Positions 3,843 through 9,230 of a stretch of DNA of 16,519 bases are shown piece after piece; within the stretch, counting starts at the first letter, position 1, and each line of letters opens with the position of its first letter. Made by a program: the position numbers and the translations under genes. The stretch comes from a virus (taxonomy: Duplodnaviria; Heunggongvirae; Uroviricota; Caudoviricetes). Location: the IMG/VR virus record IMGVR_UViG_3300028298_000002. One strand, given 5' to 3'. The notes under the pieces were generated by a model. The model made no database searches, was not told the DNA's origin, and was given only the letters and a program-made list of their open reading frames with translations.

Positions 3843-4169
3843 ATGAAATACCAACTATGCCCAAAATGTAATGGCGATGGACACTTAGGAAGATTTAATT
3901 CTCCTAACACTTCTAGCAACGCTTGTCCACAATGTGATGTTTGCTTTGGAGCAAAAACATTGCTTGTTCGCGATGATCAGCCAATCGTTACTGACGAACA
4001 AATATTACGTGTGCTGCAAAATCATCAACGTCCTGGATCCGAAGGAATGTTTATCGTAGCTGAAGATTTTTCAAGCATCATTCCGCGAATGAGAAAATTG
4101 TTTCAAGAACAAGATAACACAAAAGCCGAACTGGAAAAATTCTTCAACTGGTACAAAAAATCGCCATAG
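3843..4169 (+). CDS. Hypothetical protein with an N-terminal CxxCxGxG Zn finger
   Basis: CPKCNGDG...CDVCFGAK motifs. Confidence 0.75.
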   Translation: MKYQLCPKCNGDGHLGRFNSPNTSSNACPQCDVCFGAKTLLVRDDQPIVTDEQILRVLQNHQRPGSEGMFIVAEDFSSIIPRMRKLFQEQDNTKAELEKFFNWYKKSP

Positions 4170-4177
4170 CCACGAAT

Positions 4178-4333
4178 ATGGCGATTAACCTGGCTTGTGA
4201 TAAAGAAAAGGAAAACAAATACATTGAATTTCTTCAAAAGCACAATCTAAAATCTGGTCCATCACCCGAATTTCTTGCATCACTCAACAAAGAACAACGG
4301 GTTGAACTTGCTAAGATTTTTCAACGGAAATAG
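4178..4333 (+). CDS. Small hypothetical protein (51 aa), absent from the ORF track
   Basis: MAINLACDKEKENKYIEFLQKHNLKSGPSPEFLASLNKEQRVELAKIFQRK*; its TAG abuts the 3' end of the convergent tRNA-Leu. Confidence 0.6.
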   Translation: MAINLACDKEKENKYIEFLQKHNLKSGPSPEFLASLNKEQRVELAKIFQRK

Positions 4334-4415
4334 TACAAATGGAGAGACTTGAACTCTCACGCCTTTCGGCACCAGATCCTAAGTCTGGCGTGTCTGCCAA
4401 TTCCACCACATTCGC
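4334..4415 (-). tRNA. tRNA-Leu(UAG), cassette 1
   Basis: GCGAATG/CATTTGT acceptor, CCAGA-CTTAGGA-TCTGG anticodon arm, long variable arm, TTCAAGT T loop; CCA not encoded. Confidence 0.95.
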
Positions 4416-4420
4416 ATAAG

Positions 4421-4506
4421 TGTCGGTAGCAGGAATCGAACCTGCACGGGCATTACTGCCCATAGCATTTTAAGTGCTACGTGTCTTCCAATTCCACCAT
4501 ACCGGC
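4421..4506 (-). tRNA. tRNA-Leu(UAA), cassette 1
   Basis: TAGCA-CTTAAAA-TGCTA anticodon arm, long variable arm; C2.A71 mismatch. Confidence 0.93.
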
Positions 4507-4511
4507 ATTTG

Positions 4512-4584
4512 TGGGACTACAAGGACTTGAACCTCGATTAGCGGTGTTACAGACCGAATACTTACCAATTAGTATGATAATCCC
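4512..4584 (-). tRNA. tRNA-Tyr(GUA) with a short variable loop, cassette 1
   Basis: GGGATTA/TAGTCCC acceptor, loop CTGTAAC, 4-nt variable loop, CGAGG-TTCAAGT-CCTTG T arm. Confidence 0.88.
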
Positions 4585-4589
4585 ATTAG

Positions 4590-4676
4590 AGGAAGATGAG
4601 CGATTCGAACGCTCGGATCCTTGTGAGATCGATAGTTTTCAAGACTATTCCAATAATCCATCTCTGGCAATCTTCC
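4590..4676 (-). tRNA. tRNA-Ser(UGA), cassette 1
   Basis: GGAAGAT/ATCTTCC acceptor, ATAGT-CTTGAAA-ACTAT anticodon arm, long variable arm. Confidence 0.93.
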
Positions 4677-4688
4677 TTATTTATTCAG

Positions 4689-4775
4689 CGGAAACGGCAG
4701 GATTCAAACCTGCGAAACCTTTTACAGTTTGGCTCGTTAGCAGTGAGCTGATATAATTCTCTCATCCACGTTTCC
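4689..4775 (-). tRNA. tRNA-Ser(GCU), cassette 1
   Basis: GGAAACG/CGTTTCC acceptor, loop CTGCTAA, long variable arm; T loop TTTGAAT (U56) with D-loop A19. Confidence 0.92.
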
Positions 4776-4785
4776 ATATTTAACG

Positions 4786-4861
4786 TGTGAAGTGTGGGCT
4801 ACGATCCCACGATCTCCTGTACCACAAACAGGCGCTTTCGACCAACTAAGCTAACTTCACC
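4786..4861 (-). tRNA. tRNA-His(GUG) including G-1, cassette 1
   Basis: CCTGT-TTGTGGT-ACAGG anticodon arm; encoded G-1 opposite A73; atypical T loop ATCGTAG. Confidence 0.88.
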
Positions 4862-4875
4862 ATGTAATAAAAAAC

Positions 4876-4908
4876 AAAAAACCCCGAACTTTTTATGGTT
4901 GAGGGCTT
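4876..4908 (-). terminator. Intrinsic terminator (attenuator) ahead of tRNA cassette 1
   Basis: AAGCCCTCAAC-cataaaaa-GTTCGGGGTT followed by TTTTGTTTTTT, about 15 nt before tRNA-His. Confidence 0.8.
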
Positions 4909-4933
4909 CTTGCGTGAGTAGTATCTTAATACA

Positions 4934-5002
4934 CTACAATAGAAATTTCCCCGAACCCAAAGGATACAGCGACAAATAACTATGTAATGATAAATTTTTC
5001 AT
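4934..5002 (-). CDS. Leader peptide 1 (22 aa) MKNLSLHSYLSLYPLGSGKFLL
   Basis: ATG lies 4 nt after the -7 promoter element; codons 4-13 are all Leu/Ser/His/Tyr, the amino acids of the downstream cassette. Confidence 0.85.
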   Translation of the reverse strand: MKNLSLHSYLSLYPLGSGKFLL

Positions 5003-5006
5003 AAGG

Positions 5007-5036
5007 CAAATGTAATTATTATTTTTGATTTAGCAA
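5007..5036 (-). promoter_or_regulatory. Bacteroidota sigma70 promoter P1
   Basis: TTG-N19-TACATTTG matches the -33/-7 (TAnnTTTG) consensus. Confidence 0.85.
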
Positions 5037-5263
5037 GTTTTTGTTATACGTAATGTAAAAAAAGGCACATATTATTTTAACATTTCTTTATTTATAGGCG
5101 TTTCGGTCATGTTACATAGAAAAACGATTTGTCCATTGGTCTATGAAAATATTATGCAATATTTATGAAATGAAAAAGAGGTTGTCAAGCATTGCGATGT
5201 TTTTGATCACAATTATTATTCAATATTTTGTGTTTTATTTTATTTACTATTTGTGTTTTTGAG

Positions 5264-5335
5264 TGTTTTCAACCCGAATCGAACGAGTATCTTCGAGTCC
5301 GTAGCCCGAAATTTTATCCTTTAAACTATGAAAAC
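5264..5335 (-). tRNA. tRNA-Arg(ACG), cassette 2
   Basis: GTTTTCA/TGAAAAC acceptor, TCGGG-CTACGGA-CTCGA anticodon arm, A20 identity base. Confidence 0.88.
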
Positions 5336-5341
5336 ATTGTG

Positions 5342-5413
5342 ATGGATAGAGCAGAGTCGAACTGCTATCTAGGGGTTAGAAAACCCTTGTTCTGTCCATT
5401 GAACTACAATCCA
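5342..5413 (-). tRNA. tRNA-Arg(UCU), cassette 2
   Basis: AGGG-TTTTCTAAC-CCCT centres on TCT; D loop GGA gives A20; U1-A72. Confidence 0.85.
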
Positions 5414-5417
5414 GTAG

Positions 5418-5491
5418 TGCAACCGCTGGAATTCGAATCCAGATAGCCCATATTAAAAGTATGGTGTATTACCAATTGATACTACGGTTGC
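5418..5491 (-). tRNA. tRNA-Lys(UUU), cassette 2
   Basis: GCAACCG/CGGTTGC acceptor, CCATA-CTTTTAA-TATGG anticodon arm. Confidence 0.92.
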
Positions 5492-5580
5492 ATAAATAAT
5501 TCATCTGCTTCTTCGCTTTCGCAAAAAAGAAAATGATTTTTTTATGTACCTAGTAACTGACATTTAATTTATTTTTTTAG

Positions 5581-5652
5581 TAACCCAAGCTTGAATCGGA
5601 CAAGCGACATCAACTATGTAAAAGTTGCGTTCTACCACTGAACTATTGGGTT
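5581..5652 (-). tRNA. tRNA-Val(UAC), cassette 2
   Basis: AACCCAA/TTGGGTT acceptor, CAACT-TTTACAT-AGTTG anticodon arm; T loop TCCGATT (C55). Confidence 0.88.
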
Positions 5653-5657
5653 ATATG

Positions 5658-5729
5658 TGGAGCGTAAGAATTTCGAAATCTTATAATCTTCGATGCAAAC
5701 GAAGTGCCTTGCCTTTCAGCCAACGCCCC
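5658..5729 (-). tRNA. tRNA-Ala(UGC), cassette 2
   Basis: GGGGCGT/ACGCTCC acceptor with the G3.U70 Ala determinant; CTTCG-TTTGCAT-CGAAG anticodon arm; U53.U61 mismatch. Confidence 0.88.
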
Positions 5730-5741
5730 AGTTTTTTCTAG

Positions 5742-5814
5742 TTGGTCCTAACCGAATCGAACGGATATATCCTATGTTATGAGCATAGTTCTTTACCAAT
5801 TAAGATAAGGACCA
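5742..5814 (-). tRNA. tRNA with CAU anticodon, probably Ile2 (lysidine) or elongator Met, cassette 2
   Basis: TGGTCCT/AGGACCA acceptor, CTATG-CTCATAA-CATAG anticodon arm; no initiator features. The Ile2 call is an inference. Confidence 0.8.
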
Positions 5815-5817
5815 GTG

Positions 5818-5879
5818 AGACCAGAAACATATTCCAGCTTTTGCAGAGCTGTGCCAAAGCCAATATTAGCTATCTGATC
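5818..5879 (-). tRNA. tRNA-Cys(GCA) lacking the T arm (62 nt; functional or pseudo)
   Basis: GATCAGA/TCTGGTC 7-bp acceptor, U73, intact D arm, CAGCT-CTGCAAA-AGCTG anticodon arm; only 9 nt (GAATATGTT) replace the variable loop plus T arm. Confidence 0.7.
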
Positions 5880-5887
5880 GATCATTG

Positions 5888-5959
5888 AGCAAAATATCGG
5901 TCTCGAACCGCATCCTCAGATTGGAAATCTGACGCTTTACCAATTAAGCTATATCTTGC
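5888..5959 (-). tRNA. tRNA-Gly(UCC) with an apparent 8/4 acceptor/T-stem fold, cassette 2
   Basis: GCAAGATA/TATTTTGC 8 bp, TCAGA-TTTCCAA-TCTGA anticodon arm, GCGG-TTCGAGA-CCGA T arm, U73. Confidence 0.85.
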
Positions 5960-5966
5960 AAACTTG

Positions 5967-6039
5967 TACTCCGTAGGGGATTCAAACCCCTGTTCTTCTC
6001 AGTGAAAGTGAGACGACTTAATCGCTTGTCCAACGGAGC
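5967..6039 (-). tRNA. tRNA-Glu(UUC), cassette 2
   Basis: GCTCCGT/ACGGAGT acceptor, TCTCA-CTTTCAC-TGAGA anticodon arm; D loop CGA (A19) with T loop TTTGAAT (U56). Confidence 0.9.
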
Positions 6040-6130
6040 ATTGTTCCGCTGGTTCGTCTGATTTTGTGTTTAATGTTTTCATCACTTGTTTTTTGTTTCT
6101 TTTTTGTATAAATTGCTTGTTTTTTTTCGC

Positions 6131-6195
6131 TTAGTGGCGGGAGTGCAACTCATTTCGCCTAACGGCTAATCTACTCTGCACTTTGCCACCACTAA
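6131..6195 (-). ncRNA. Unidentified tRNA-sized hairpin RNA within cassette 2
   Basis: TTAGTGGTGG/CCGCCACTAA (10 bp, with a G.U that pairs only on the minus strand), AGTGCA/TGCACT, and apical GCC-GTTA-GGC. Confidence 0.4.
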
Positions 6196-6264
6196 TATTT
6201 TAAGCAACAACGGACTTTTCCTACATTTTTACAAACAAGGCTTTGACCTATTGTTGTTGCTTTG

Positions 6265-6337
6265 CACACCGACCTCGATTTGAACGAAGATTATCAGGGT
6301 TGGAATCTGATCGCATTGCCATTTAACTCATCGGTGC
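6265..6337 (-). tRNA. tRNA-Trp(CCA), cassette 2
   Basis: GCACCGA/TCGGTGT acceptor, loop TTCCAAC, CTTCG-TTCAAAT-CGAGG T arm; weak D stem. Confidence 0.82.
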
Positions 6338-6347
6338 GTATTTTAAG

Positions 6348-6424
6348 CGGTTTATTTCGGATTCGAACCGAACGAATATCTCGCGTGACAGGCGAGCGAA
6401 CACAGCCAAGCATTCCCATAAACC
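6348..6424 (-). tRNA. tRNA-Asp(GUC), cassette 2
   Basis: GGTTTAT/ATAAACC acceptor, G73, CTCGC-CTGTCAC-GCGAG anticodon arm; G at position 8 and a 7-nt variable region. Confidence 0.87.
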
Positions 6425-6513
6425 AAAATAGAGGAAAGCCTTAAACCTCATTTTTGCAAGTTGGATCTTGCCAATCTAACGCCCTTGTTTCAGGGCCGAA
6501 CTTTTTATTGCTG

Positions 6514-6588
6514 CTCCCATTGCTAGACTTGAACTAGCGACCTTCAGATTAACAATCTGCTGCTACTAACCAGCTGAGCTAAACGGGA
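6514..6588 (-). tRNA. tRNA-Asn(GUU), cassette 2
   Basis: TCCCGTT/AATGGGA acceptor, G73, loop TTGTTAA, canonical D and T arms. Confidence 0.93.
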
Positions 6589-6598
6589 TTGTTGATTG

Positions 6599-6671
6599 TT
6601 GTTTCGGGGTGAATCGAACACCCGACATTTATCTTATCAGGATACTATTCTGCCAACTGAATTACGAAACA
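6599..6671 (-). tRNA. tRNA-Ile(GAU), cassette 2
   Basis: TGTTTCG/CGAAACA acceptor, TATC-CTGATAA-GATA anticodon arm, GGGTG-TTCGATT-CACCC T arm. Confidence 0.9.
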
Positions 6672-6885
6672 ATAAAAAAAGAGTCAGCTATTTTGCCTTC
6701 ATAAGCTGATTTCCCCAGTGGCTGCCAGGTATTCTAAAAGTGCATTTACGGGTTAATTAAACCTTCATTCCTAAAAATTTCGTTATGTTTTCTTTCGTAC
6801 TAAAATCAACATTTAACTAATTTTTTTCTAACGCTGTTGTCGTTTCAAACAGGACTTTCAGTAACTCTTTATTCAAAGAACGTAA

Positions 6886-6960
6886 TGGTTGCGAGGACCG
6901 GAATCGAACCGGTGTGGGCAACAGCTTATGAGACTGGCGGGAACCAACATCCTCCTCGCA
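6886..6960 (-). tRNA. tRNA-Met(CAU) with an atypical D arm and encoded CCA, cassette 2
   Basis: TGCGAGG/CCTCGCA-A-CCA, loop CTCATAA, ACCGG-TTCGATT-CCGGT T arm; G2-C71/C3-G70 are Met-like; no U8. It is the only tRNA in the array with encoded CCA. Confidence 0.8.
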
Positions 6961-6973
6961 ATATTTTTTTTTG

Positions 6974-7056
6974 AGCCTAAAGAGAGATTTGAACTCCCGT
7001 GTGGTTTCCCATCCAGATTACAAATCTGGCGCAATCGGCCGCTATGCGATTTAGGC
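6974..7056 (-). tRNA. tRNA-Thr(UGU) with a long variable arm, cassette 2
   Basis: GCCTAAA/TTTAGGC acceptor (C2-G71), CCAGA-TTTGTAA-TCTGG anticodon arm, 14-nt variable arm with TGG-GAAA-CCA. Confidence 0.88.
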
Positions 7057-7061
7057 AATGT

Positions 7062-7150
7062 TTCGAGAAATGGCTGGGCTATTTTGTTTCATTGTCCCAA
7101 CCAATCATTCGCCACCAGGATTTTCCTACCCGATAGCAACCTATCTCAAA
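7062..7150 (-). ncRNA. Unidentified structured RNA of about 90 nt at the head of cassette 2
   Basis: Closing stem TTTGAGA/TCTCGAA encloses two hairpins (TTGCTATCGGG/CCTGGTGGCGA and TGGTTGGG/CCCAGCCA). Confidence 0.4.
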
Positions 7151-7185
7151 GTGTTAAATAAAAAAAAGAACTTAATTTTAGTCAT

Positions 7186-7216
7186 AAAAAAACCCCGACT
7201 TATTTGGTCGAGGCTT
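7186..7216 (-). terminator. Intrinsic terminator (attenuator) ahead of tRNA cassette 2
   Basis: AAGCCTCGAC-caaataa-GTCGGGGTT followed by TTTT. Confidence 0.85.
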
Positions 7217-7238
7217 CGTAGGTTTAATGTAGATGTTT

Positions 7239-7358
7239 TTAACATCGAACACAATCGTCCAAAGCCTCATTAGTCTTGTCTCCGCCCTCAATACGTACAG
7301 CGACAGACCAATTGGTTCTCGTTGCACACGCCATTATAATATTTTTTACTTGTTTCAT
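7239..7358 (-). CDS. Leader peptide 2 (39 aa) MKQVKNIIMACATRTNWSVAVRIEGGDKTNEALDDCVRC
   Basis: A-rich context before the ATG; contains all 13 amino acids of cassette 2 and only three residues outside that set (Q3, S18, L33). Confidence 0.85.
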   Translation of the reverse strand: MKQVKNIIMACATRTNWSVAVRIEGGDKTNEALDDCVRC

Positions 7359-7452
7359 TGAATGCGTTAATTTTTTTTAGTTAAAAAAGGCTGTCCAAAT
7401 TTTTATCCTACGTTTCCGCTGTCCAGAATATTATTCTGCCTTTTTGACTTTG

Positions 7453-7485
7453 CAAATATAGAATGGTTTTTTTTATATTTCCAAA
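7453..7485 (-). promoter_or_regulatory. Bacteroidota sigma70 promoter P2
   Basis: TTTG-N21-TATATTTG. Confidence 0.8.
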
Positions 7486-7597
7486 TTTATTTTTTGTTTT
7501 TCATTTAACTAATTTAAAATCAGTTAAATAAAATTCGGCACTTTCGTAAAATATACAACAAAATGGGAATTTTATTACAATAAAAATCTAAAAATAG

Positions 7598-7668
7598 TTT
7601 CAGGAGAAAGATTCGAACTTCCGTTTGAGAGACCAAAACTCCCCGTCCTGCCGCTAGACGATCCTGAA
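7598..7668 (-). tRNA. tRNA-Gln(UUG), cassette 3
   Basis: TTCAGGA/TCCTGAA acceptor (U1-A72), GGGAG-TTTTGGT-CTCTC anticodon arm. Confidence 0.9.
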
Positions 7669-7679
7669 TTGTGTGTGTG

Positions 7680-7751
7680 TGTGATCGACAAGATTTGAAC
7701 TTGTGTCCCCGCCTCTTCAGGGCGATGCTAGGCCAACTCAGCTACGACCAC
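7680..7751 (-). tRNA. tRNA-Phe(GAA), cassette 3
   Basis: GTGGTCG/CGATCAC acceptor, TCGCC-CTGAAGA-GGCGG anticodon arm. Confidence 0.9.
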
Positions 7752-7761
7752 ATTAATTTTG

Positions 7762-7837
7762 TAGCGATGGCCAGATTTCAACTGGCGCTTCCCTGGTCCC
7801 AAACCAGGTCGGAAAAAGCAGACTTCCGTACATCGCT
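7762..7837 (-). tRNA. tRNA-Pro(UGG), cassette 3
   Basis: AGCGATG/CATCGCT acceptor, CCTGG-TTTGGGA-CCAGG anticodon arm; D loop TGCT (C19) with T loop TTGAAAT (G56). Confidence 0.88.
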
Positions 7838-7846
7838 ATGTAAAAC

Positions 7847-7877
7847 AAAAAACCCCAACATTTCTGCTGAGGTTTTT
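7847..7877 (-). terminator. Intrinsic terminator (attenuator) ahead of tRNA cassette 3
   Basis: AAAAACCTCAGC-agaaat-GTTGGGGTTTTT followed by TGTTTT, about 10 nt before tRNA-Pro. Confidence 0.85.
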
Positions 7878-7897
7878 CGTAGTAGTGTTTTAAATTT

Positions 7898-7966
7898 TTA
7901 ACATAACGATTCCAGAGCAAGAAGTTGCTTAAAAAACTGCGGCTGAAATTGTGTTTTGTTTTTCAT
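7898..7966 (-). CDS. Leader peptide 3 (22 aa) MKNKTQFQPQFFKQLLALESLC
   Basis: ATG lies 8 nt after the -7 element; codons 6-12 CAA TTT CAG CCG CAG TTT TTT are all Gln/Phe/Pro, the amino acids of the downstream cassette. Confidence 0.85.
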   Translation of the reverse strand: MKNKTQFQPQFFKQLLALESLC

Positions 7967-7974
7967 TTGGACTG

Positions 7975-8005
7975 CAATGATAGTGCAATTTTTTGAATCT
8001 GCAAA
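7975..8005 (-). promoter_or_regulatory. Bacteroidota sigma70 promoter P3
   Basis: TTTG-N19-TATCATTG (one mismatch to TAnnTTTG). Confidence 0.72.
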
Positions 8006-8014
8006 TTTATTTTG

Positions 8015-8049
8015 AAAAAAAAAGCAAAAGCCCAATAAAAATTGGGCTT
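8015..8049 (-). terminator. Intrinsic terminator after the VRR-NUC gene, insulating the tRNA array
   Basis: AAGCCCAAT-tttt-ATTGGGCTT followed by TTGCTTTTTTT. Confidence 0.75.
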
Positions 8050-8109
8050 CGCAAGTGAAATTAATTTTAGATTGGTCTCCTACGTTTATTTCGGTGCTAA
8101 GATATGAAT

Positions 8110-8475
8110 TTATTTTCCAATATCAAATCCTGAATGGATCTCGTTAATAATTTCTTGGAATTGTTCGAAGGACCGGCAGATATAAACTTTAATTCCATTT
8201 GCTTCCCAGATTGCGTGGATCTTTTTTTGTTCAGGTGAAACTACACCTGTTTCTGTTTTCATTTCTATGCCGATAGGAATAACTGAACAAACACCTGGCT
8301 TGTATAAATACAGAATGTCGCAGATTCCTGAAACGCAGCCCGTTGCTTTGAGCTTAGTCGCTTCAATCTTATTTCGGTATCCACCATTCGGAACGGAAAA
8401 TAAAAGTCCCCTACGTTCCGGAAAGGTATTGTGAAACCATTGATAGCATTTTGCCTGAATCTGATCTTCGCTCAT
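8110..8475 (-). CDS. VRR-NUC domain (PD-(D/E)xK) nuclease
   Basis: SEDQIQ...LLFSVPNGG.R...G..SGICD...IEMKT..G..SPEQ pattern. Confidence 0.88.
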   Translation of the reverse strand: MSEDQIQAKCYQWFHNTFPERRGLLFSVPNGGYRNKIEATKLKATGCVSGICDILYLYKPGVCSVIPIGIEMKTETGVVSPEQKKIHAIWEANGIKVYICRSFEQFQEIINEIHSGFDIGK

Positions 8476-8559
8476 TCCTCAAAAGTAGGGAAAATTATCC
8501 GAAGCAAAACTCTAAAGTTTAAAGATTAATCAAAGCCTTTATTTTCAATACTTTTAGAA

Positions 8560-9230
8560 CTTTGATACTATGCTTACTTAGTGTATTGGGTAATTCATTG
8601 GATTGGAAAATTCAGTACAAGACTTCAAAAAGGAGTTTGATACCGTACAGTCTTACTTAGACTAGGTTAGTACCAATTTCACACGGTTTTTTAATGGTTT
8701 CTATTATTAAGCCCTATAAACCTTTTTATTTTTTTTACAAAAAAGTTCAATTATTCAATATGATACTATGTATTGTATGTTACTACTCATAATCAGATGT
8801 TTAACTACTATGTATTGTATAGTACTATGTCAATTTAGAATAAATAAATATTTATAATTAAAATAAAATATACGCGTTAATATGTTTTTCTATATTCTTT
8901 TAGGCAGAATCTTTAAATCCTTAGTCTAAGTAATGATGTATAGTATTAAACTCAAAAAGGTGGTTTTTTTAATAAAAATCAATCAATCAATAAATCATTA
9001 CTTAGACTAGTGTTTCCATAGTACTGCCTTTTTAATTTGAGTTTGATACTCAATTTTTTAAATTGCTAAATACTTAGTTGCACTAAGCTAGTATAGTACA
9101 GGAATCAATATAGTCTATGTTAATATTGATATATATAATATTTTGTACTACTAAAATGTTTGTACGATAGAGTTTTAAATGTTTAGTACTATTTTTTTTA
9201 GTACAATATTTTTTTGTACATTTTTAAATC
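8560..9230. repeat. AT-rich non-coding region with dispersed direct and inverted repeats (origin-like)
   Basis: TTACTTAGACTAG at 8653 and 8998; 15-bp perfect inverted repeat at 8922-8936/8995-9009; TACTATGTATTGTAT at 8764 and 8806; many AGTAC/GTACT motifs; no ORF of 60 aa or more in the track. Confidence 0.6.

Follow-up and report, generated by a model that had tools for sequence, protein, structure and literature searches.

Positions 7186-7485 of a phage genome fragment, read on the minus strand, carry a promoter motif, a 39-codon open reading frame (ORF), a candidate antiterminator and an intrinsic terminator ahead of a large block of transfer RNA (tRNA) genes. The fragment, which we call the window, is a 16,519-nucleotide stretch of IMG/VR virus record IMGVR_UViG_3300028298_000002 (Caudoviricetes); its source phage is uncultured, the contig is 80.5 kb long, and the DNA recurs in lake-water metagenomes. 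We conclude, with some reserve, that the region is probably a ribosome-mediated transcription attenuator placed before a tRNA operon. The architecture of promoter, mini-ORF, antiterminator/terminator and tRNA cassette is kept in five relatives; the anatomy of the unit, its conservation and its switch in silico are directly observed. We further regard it as possible, though doubtful, that the 20 amino acids are split over three cassettes (3 + 13 + 4) whose leaders are written in their own amino acids, with the 39-codon leader acting as a 13-way OR gate.

Leader ORF, proposed antiterminator and modeled switch

Our comparisons use five distinct related genomes with a syntenic tRNA cluster (L068, L075, L076/L077, L078/L079 and L083/L084). 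These were recovered by exact-protein look-up of the ligase, of a 72-amino-acid protein of one relative and of a VRR-NUC neighbor, and their ligases are 75-79% identical to that of the window.

The leader ORF (39 codons plus TAA; 7239-7358, minus strand) encodes the peptide MKQVKNIIMACATRTNWSVAVRIEGGDKTNEALDDCVRC. A first-pass annotation of this DNA, made from the letters alone, had described a 39-amino-acid leader at 7358-7239 (minus strand), and translation bears it out: His, Tyr, Phe and Pro are absent, and Gln, Ser and Leu occur once each. The codon listing likewise confirms that ATT, ATA and ATG stand in a row, as codons 7-9, and that Arg is encoded by AGA, CGT and CGA. An Ile2 identity for one of the CAU tRNAs, as deduced from the sequence, is plausible, given the presence of two CAU tRNAs of non-initiator type and the conservation of ATA-ATG. 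Leader homologs in the relatives have 38-39 codons, and read MKRLQNIMLCATRTNWSVAVRIEGGDKTSEALNDCVRW in L068, MKHLQNIMLCATRTNWSVAIRIEGGDKTNEALNDSVRW in L075, MKRLQNIMLCATRTNWSVAVRIEGGDKINEALNDSVRW in L076/L077, (GTG)KHLQNIMLCATRTNWSVAIRIEGGEDKTSEALNDCVRW in L078 and (GTG)KSITNIMLCATRTNWSVGIRIEGSDKINEALDDCVRW in L083.

Substitutions in these leaders follow a coding-type pattern. The ratio of nonsynonymous to synonymous differences (pN/pS) is 0.17-0.30 in nine of ten genome pairs, and third codon positions account for 9 of the 14 variable columns from codon 11 onward. Each of the two indels adds or removes a complete codon (ATT in the window, GAG in L078), and the start codon changes from ATG to GTG in two relatives (L078 and L083), never to a non-start codon. 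The leader lacks a Shine-Dalgarno sequence, in keeping with a Bacteroidota-type host. Judged by this comparative pattern, the ORF is probably translated. Synonymous changes are concentrated in codons 20-29 and are missing from codons 11-19 and 31-33.

The antiterminator 5' arm, GAGGCTTTG (7260-7268, minus strand), covers codons 31-33 (Glu-Ala-Leu) and is invariant in six genomes; the zero synonymous change there fits an added constraint at the RNA level. Its partner is the 3' arm CGAAGCCTC (7210-7218, minus strand), whose last four nucleotides are the first four of the terminator 5' arm. The 9/9 pairing of 7268-7260 with 7218-7210 that had been proposed from the window holds, with eight Watson-Crick pairs and one U.G, and is part of the minimum-energy fold (z = -2.35). 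It does include the Leu33 codon TTG, for which the cassette has no tRNA, inside the 5' arm. In the relatives the 3' arm is CAAAGCCTC, which turns the U.G into U-A; this is the sole arm change, and the pairing is kept.

The intrinsic terminator (7186-7213, minus strand) consists of CCTCGAC (7213-7207), a 7-nt loop (7206-7200), GTCGGGG (7199-7193) and T7 (7192-7186). Taken alone, its hairpin has a 7-bp G+C-rich stem and a folding energy of -8.9 kcal/mol, and it is invariant in the six genomes. CCTC is common to the antiterminator helix and the terminator arm, so the two structures are mutually exclusive. The loop from the stop codon to the 3' arm is variable, with indels among genomes. RNAalifold, run on a five-genome alignment, recovers the antiterminator helix, a small hairpin around the stop codon, and a hairpin within the ORF that spans codons 16-30 and adjoins the antiterminator (7269-7312, minus strand). 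In this last hairpin a few pairs are broken, but most persist, several of them by way of G.U/G-C changes.

We modeled the switch under a strict rule, in which the ribosome footprint is masked for each A-site codon, only RNA 3' of the ribosome folds, and the equilibrium probability of the terminator is computed. Across five genomes this probability is at most 0.02 for nearly all A-site codons 1-27, with an outlier of 0.90 at Ser17 of L068, and is 0.94 from codon 28 to the stop. A laxer model, in which RNA behind the ribosome may pair, jumps at the same codon 28. In the models, ribosome position decides which structure forms. All 13 cassette amino-acid types are present upstream of codon 28. Untranslated RNA with a short 5' untranslated region (UTR) folds into the antiterminator, with a terminator probability of at most 0.02. 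We did not find a conserved upstream partner for 7268-7260 that would form an anti-antiterminator (1:2) helix; we therefore expect read-through when the leader is not translated, and this is probably the default.

Promoter P2 (7453-7485, minus strand) is of the Bacteroidota -33/-7 type, with TTTG at 7485-7482, a 21-nt spacer and TATATTTG at 7460-7453. It is among only three full TTTG-N18-22-TAnnTTTG matches in the window and is kept in all relatives. Within the tRNA region, minus-strand TAnnTTTG motifs occur only before the three leader ORFs; no second motif lies between 7453 and 5014, and upstream of the cassette that strand has no Bacteroidota-type promoter motif other than P2. With its start placed by the motif, the leader 5' UTR would occupy 7359-7446 (minus strand), including a window-specific insertion of ~70 nt; in relatives the 5' UTR is ~27 nt. 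The insertion carries a CAGAAT/ATTCTG hairpin and a GGACAGC direct repeat.

From these elements we infer a transcription start, translation, coupling kinetics and tRNA specificity that together would work as follows. Transcription would begin at P2, as its motif suggests, and the 39-codon leader would be translated, as the comparative constraint suggests. With a ribosome delayed in codons 1-27, the 9-bp helix would form once 7210 exits the polymerase and before the terminator 3' arm is made. This antiterminator would sequester the four bases that begin the terminator 5' arm, giving read-through into a structured spacer and the 15-tRNA cassette. A leading ribosome at about codon 28 or later would instead cover, or have passed, the 5' arm and block the antiterminator. 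The terminator hairpin and U7 would then form, and transcription would stop. Fast decoding would thus leave the cassette off, and a stall anywhere in codons 1-27 would turn it on.

tRNA cassettes, sister units and leader composition

The tRNA cluster (7837-4333, minus strand) is flanked by plus-strand protein genes. ARAGORN counts 22 tRNAs in the window, to which Rfam and relaxed ARAGORN add a tRNA-Tyr at 4584-4511. The cluster comprises three minus-strand blocks: Pro-Phe-Gln (7837-7597), the largest, from Thr to Arg(ACG) (7056-5263), and His-Ser-Ser-Tyr-Leu-Leu (4860-4333). The cassette behind the 39-codon leader (5263-7056, minus strand) runs Thr, CAU, Ile, Asn, Asp, Trp, Glu, Gly, Cys-like, CAU, Ala, Val, Lys, Arg(UCU), Arg(ACG). 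The first-pass annotation had called it a 15-tRNA cassette representing each of 13 amino-acid types in the leader. All 13 types are indeed in the leader, but only 14 of the cassette's tRNAs are canonical by ARAGORN and Rfam, and Cys is represented by an element that lacks a T arm.

No canonical tRNA-Cys was found in the cassette by ARAGORN, relaxed ARAGORN or Rfam. The 63-nt tRNA-Cys(GCA)-like element in the Gly-Met spacer (5817-5879, minus strand) is found only in the mitochondrial (-mt) mode of ARAGORN, which gives only four other extra matches in the window, all on the opposite strand. It has a perfect Cys anticodon stem-loop and no T arm. Relatives have a canonical tRNA-Cys at the identical slot, and, aligned with that of L068, the element has a ~21 nt deletion over the T arm and shows two compensatory pairs in its anticodon stem. 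By slot, deletion and compensatory pairs, the sequence comparison identifies the element as a derivative of tRNA-Cys; it could be either a fresh pseudogene or a minimal tRNA. Relative L083 has the complete 15-tRNA order with canonical Cys, which supports an ancestral 15-tRNA cassette including Cys. The cassettes of L068 and L078 are cut after Cys, with truncated tRNA-Met remnants left.

The leader's composition matches the cassette less improbably than had been claimed. A chance estimate of about 1e-5 was too optimistic: measured against the amino-acid frequencies of the phage's own proteins, 35 of 38 leader residues being of cassette types gives P = 2.4e-4, and leaving out Cys (32 of 38) gives P = 5e-3. 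The 13 types account for 67% of residues in the phage's own proteins, and ~2% of random protein segments of leader length hold all 13. Among 70 small ATG-ORFs in the window the leader ranks first (0.92, against a mean of 0.57 and a standard deviation of 0.10).

Each of the other two tRNA blocks is preceded by a unit of similar layout. The Pro/Phe/Gln unit (7847-8009, minus strand) has the promoter element TAAATTTG (8009-8002), an ORF at 7966-7898 encoding MKNKTQFQPQFFKQLLALESLC, and a terminator at 7872-7847. The His/Ser/Ser/Tyr/Leu/Leu unit (4871-5014, minus strand) has TACATTTG (5014-5007), an ORF at 5002-4934 encoding MKNLSLHSYLSLYPLGSGKFLL, and a terminator at 4905-4871. The peptides contain QFQPQFF before Pro/Phe/Gln and LSLHSYLSLY before His/Ser/Tyr/Leu. 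Enrichment for a leader's own cassette is 2.95x, 1.32x and 3.25x for the Pro/Phe/Gln, 39-codon and His/Ser/Tyr/Leu leaders, respectively (P = 0.003, 0.005 and 6e-6), and enrichment for the amino acids of other cassettes is 0.2-1.2x. Moreover, the stretches after the stop codons of the three units are paralogous (..CTAC..ACG.AA..CC.TC..GGGGTTTTTT), and, across the window and four relatives, a search for an ATGAAA mini-ORF followed by GGGGTTTTTT picks exactly the leader units and no other sequence.

The U-tracts of the sister units end ~10 nt before tRNA-Pro and tRNA-His, respectively, which indicates that these tRNAs would be made only by terminator read-through. The restriction of TAnnTTTG to the leader ORFs leads to the same expectation, that the tRNAs behind the two short units are transcribed only through the terminators. 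The Pro/Phe/Gln unit is kept in relatives. In the fold model the His/Ser/Tyr/Leu unit switches at sensor codons 7-11, and L068 and L083 have compensatory changes in its terminator stem. A simple codon-position switch was rejected for the Pro/Phe/Gln unit, where no antiterminator competes with the terminator in any genome. The segment of that unit that could pair with the terminator (7853-7966, minus strand) is CTTGCTCTGG in the window and L077 and CTGTTGATGG in L068, L075 and L078, and neither version gives a switch in the fold model.

If the 13-way reading were true, losing any one host tRNA type would stall the ribosome before codon 28 and turn on the whole 15-tRNA cassette. Triggers could include an anticodon nuclease or another tRNA-cleaving defense system.

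Weighing the attenuator against other explanations

Several observations count against an attenuator, or against one tuned to 13 amino acids. On the RNA side, the 9-bp pairing alone has P = 0.06 (2000 dinucleotide shuffles), and a double compensatory change that would prove the antiterminator was not found among the aligned genomes, because its arms and the terminator are invariant save for one G/A difference. Folded with no ribosome, the window's RNA has an equilibrium terminator probability anywhere between 0.005 and 0.9, according to where the 5' end of the long UTR is placed; the co-transcriptional order would nonetheless favor the local antiterminator helix. For the Pro/Phe/Gln unit, no antiterminator or switch is predicted in any genome modeled. 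On the coding side, each amino acid is represented by one to four scattered leader codons, with no runs. Because the codons stand singly, sensitivity to partial depletion is expectedly low compared with the runs of trpL and hisL, and the leader should be insensitive unless tRNA loss is almost complete. The leaders of relatives are enriched more weakly, with 30-32 of 37-38 residues of cassette types and 5-7 off-cassette (P = 0.017-0.04 for four relatives, L083 being counted by hand), and off-cassette residues (Leu, Gln, Ser, His) figure in roughly half of all amino-acid changes from genome to genome. The leaders of L068 and L078 keep Ala, Val, Lys and Arg codons while their cassettes are without those tRNAs, so the leader is not tightly co-evolving with its cassette, although these truncations may be recent. 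In the window itself, the T-arm-less Cys tRNA may be dead. Finally, equal purifying selection on the peptide would be expected of a small functional protein.

The earlier proposal of an attenuator is therefore retained in part. What stands is the conserved architecture, the coding-type constraint, a modeled switch where the antiterminator arm begins, and sister units that match their own cassettes. What does not stand is the strength of the 'pangram' statistic, a clean 15-tRNA cassette, and, judging from the relatives, a leader tightly tuned to that cassette.

In an unlikely alternative, the ORF encodes a small functional phage protein of 38-39 amino acids with its own promoter and terminator, the composition match is coincidental, and the cassette is expressed by constitutive terminator leakage or from an unrecognised promoter. 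A ratio of nonsynonymous to synonymous substitution rates (dN/dS) of ~0.2-0.3 with whole-codon indels is typical of a real small protein; the central 28 residues are almost invariant, including the off-cassette S18 and L33; codons for Ala, Val, Lys and Arg persist where the matching tRNAs are missing; and the enrichment in relatives reaches only P ~0.02-0.04. However, the peptide has no relative in Pfam, PHROGs or the ESM Atlas, and its unit has two paralogous 22-codon units, with plainly codon-matched peptides that vary too much, and are too short, for proteins. There is, moreover, no promoter motif between the terminator and the cassette, and the antiterminator arm lies inside the ORF, with zero synonymous change, exactly at the modeled switch point. 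A promoter hidden in the 130-nt spacer was considered separately and rejected, as the TAnnTTTG motif is absent there and the conservation has the pattern of RNA structure.

The absence of codon runs also suits a different kind of attenuator, one that gauges translation speed or ribosome-polymerase coupling in general and reads an ordinary peptide in place of 13 amino acids. We hold this to be rather improbable. It accommodates the fact that cassette types make up 67% of phage residues anyway, that substitutions do not avoid off-cassette residues, and that the modeled switch depends on ribosome position alone. Against it, the two sister leaders are clearly specific, each of the six genomes compared has all 13 types ahead of codon 28, and His, Tyr, Phe and Pro are absent from the leader in the window and four relatives, though two relatives have a single His at position 3. 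Least probable, and by our estimate scarcely credible, is that the hairpin and U-tract are a mere terminator or insulator ending the Pro/Phe/Gln transcript, with the ORF a chance open frame. The terminator does lie downstream of the Pro/Phe/Gln block on the same strand, and the helix statistic is weak, yet a conserved promoter stands between tRNA-Gln and the ORF, the ORF is open with coding-type substitutions in six genomes, and relatives have protein genes inserted between tRNA-Gln and P2 with the unit undisturbed.

Known attenuators and the surrounding cluster

An attenuator controlled by several amino acids has precedents in multivalent leader peptides such as the ilvGMEDA leader (Leu/Val/Ile codons) and the thr leader (Thr/Ile codons) (e.g. 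PMC1183508). As is proposed for the phage unit, these place a short translated leader between promoter and first gene, let the codons of several amino acids act jointly, and set a terminator against a mutually exclusive upstream helix, with ribosome position choosing between them. They differ in that they control biosynthetic enzymes and use codon runs, whereas the phage unit would control tRNAs, so that decoding capacity would be the feedback variable, and its leader samples 13 types by one to four scattered codons each. The phage unit also departs from ilv and thr in its Bacteroidota-type promoters and, as no 1:2 helix was found, in an untranslated default that would be read-through. In trpL (RF00513), as proposed for the phage unit, a ribosome stalled in or finishing the leader ORF sets the choice of terminator or antiterminator, but the trpL leader differs from the phage one in its two neighboring Trp codons and in a 1:2 pause/protector hairpin, and there is no sequence or covariance-model similarity. 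The T-box (RF00230) resembles the proposed phage unit as a transcription attenuator responsive to the state of the tRNA pool. Its ligand is uncharged tRNA, bound directly with no translation involved, and its targets are aminoacyl-tRNA synthetase and amino-acid genes, whereas the phage unit has a conserved ORF that is probably translated.

In covariance-model searches, the T-box model has no match in 4000-8600 at E-values up to 0.1, and the Rfam amino-acid leader families (Trp, His, Leu, Thr, Phe) have none in 7186-7485. The sole Rfam leader match is Phe_leader at 7942-8056, on the wrong strand and with 28.6 bits against a gathering threshold of 55. Close counterparts of the 39-codon unit are its sister units, which share its promoter type, MK start, paralogous terminator (..AAGCCYTC..GGGGTTTTTT) and a tRNA block directly after. 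In the sister leaders, each 22 codons long, three to four amino-acid types stand in tight runs; the main leader has 39 codons, 13 types and the clearest antiterminator.

To our knowledge, the control of phage tRNA-array expression is essentially undescribed, and we found no description of leader-peptide (trp-operon-style) attenuation of tRNA genes in the full-text literature searched. An attenuator of this kind would let decoding speed feed back directly on the supply of tRNAs. In the present view, phage tRNAs stand in for host tRNAs that defense systems or the phage itself destroy (PMC10264068, PMC11555353, PMC12409363), and such a role would give the switch an obvious use. The attenuator would also put the oldest known RNA switch logic to a new purpose, in a host group (Bacteroidota-type) with unusual translation signals. 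The locus would offer a natural compact sensor of codon-specific translation speed, and it provides a 13-amino-acid leader together with five natural variants.

Searches for further homologs covered several collections. Reads of four lake-water metagenome DNA runs contained the same strain only, with no new variants in the leader. No relative was found among INPHARED phages by DNA search. In IMG/VR, the VRR-NUC neighbor led to 25 loci, all without tRNA clusters, the 206-amino-acid neighbor protein to one short contig without tRNAs, and the ligase to no match; a pattern encoding QFQPQFF gave 39 chance matches there, none with tRNAs nearby. The invariant leader 20-mer has no match in IMG/VR or the JGI metagenome collection, and a degenerate leader-peptide pattern has none in the latter. 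Four ligase contigs (L066, L069, L071 and L073) end short of any tRNA cluster, and two candidate relatives (P0136 and P0142) were rejected as different phages in which the cluster is absent.

Codons 11-19 of the leader (7304-7330, minus strand), which show no synonymous change in six genomes, also contain the perfect palindrome CCAATTGG. Together the two features suggest that this stretch is constrained by more than its coding role, perhaps as a protein-binding site or RNA element. Downstream of the terminator and ahead of tRNA-Thr lies a structured spacer RNA of ~90 nt (7062-7150, minus strand), with a closing helix and two hairpins. All 26 of its predicted pairs are kept in five genomes, many through one-sided G.U/G-C/U-A changes, and it has no Rfam match.

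The cluster contains further structured gaps. The gap between tRNA-Trp and tRNA-Glu holds a long hairpin RNA of -30 kcal/mol (6129-6195, minus strand), which resembles stable non-tRNA species of other phage tRNA clusters; L068 and L077 retain the 9-bp basal stem but differ in the interior. Directly before tRNA-Ile, a 6-bp hairpin followed by T7 (6674-6709, minus strand) comes after a 9-codon ORF, MLILVRKKT (6783-6812, minus strand). This hairpin, conserved in L068 and L077, could serve as another attenuator within the cassette or as a processing site. At the head of the cassette, tRNA-Thr(UGU) (6973-7056, minus strand) is 84 nt long with a long variable arm, and its ortholog in relatives is 74 nt.

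In the relatives, the tRNA cluster stands out as a hot spot of mobile-gene insertion and deletion. Genes of HNH or HTH type are inserted between tRNAs in L068 (4861-5253), L075 (1506-2063) and L083 (7209-7736). The truncated tRNA-Met remnants at the cut of the large cassette lie at ~2720-2760 in L068 and ~8010-8060 in L078.

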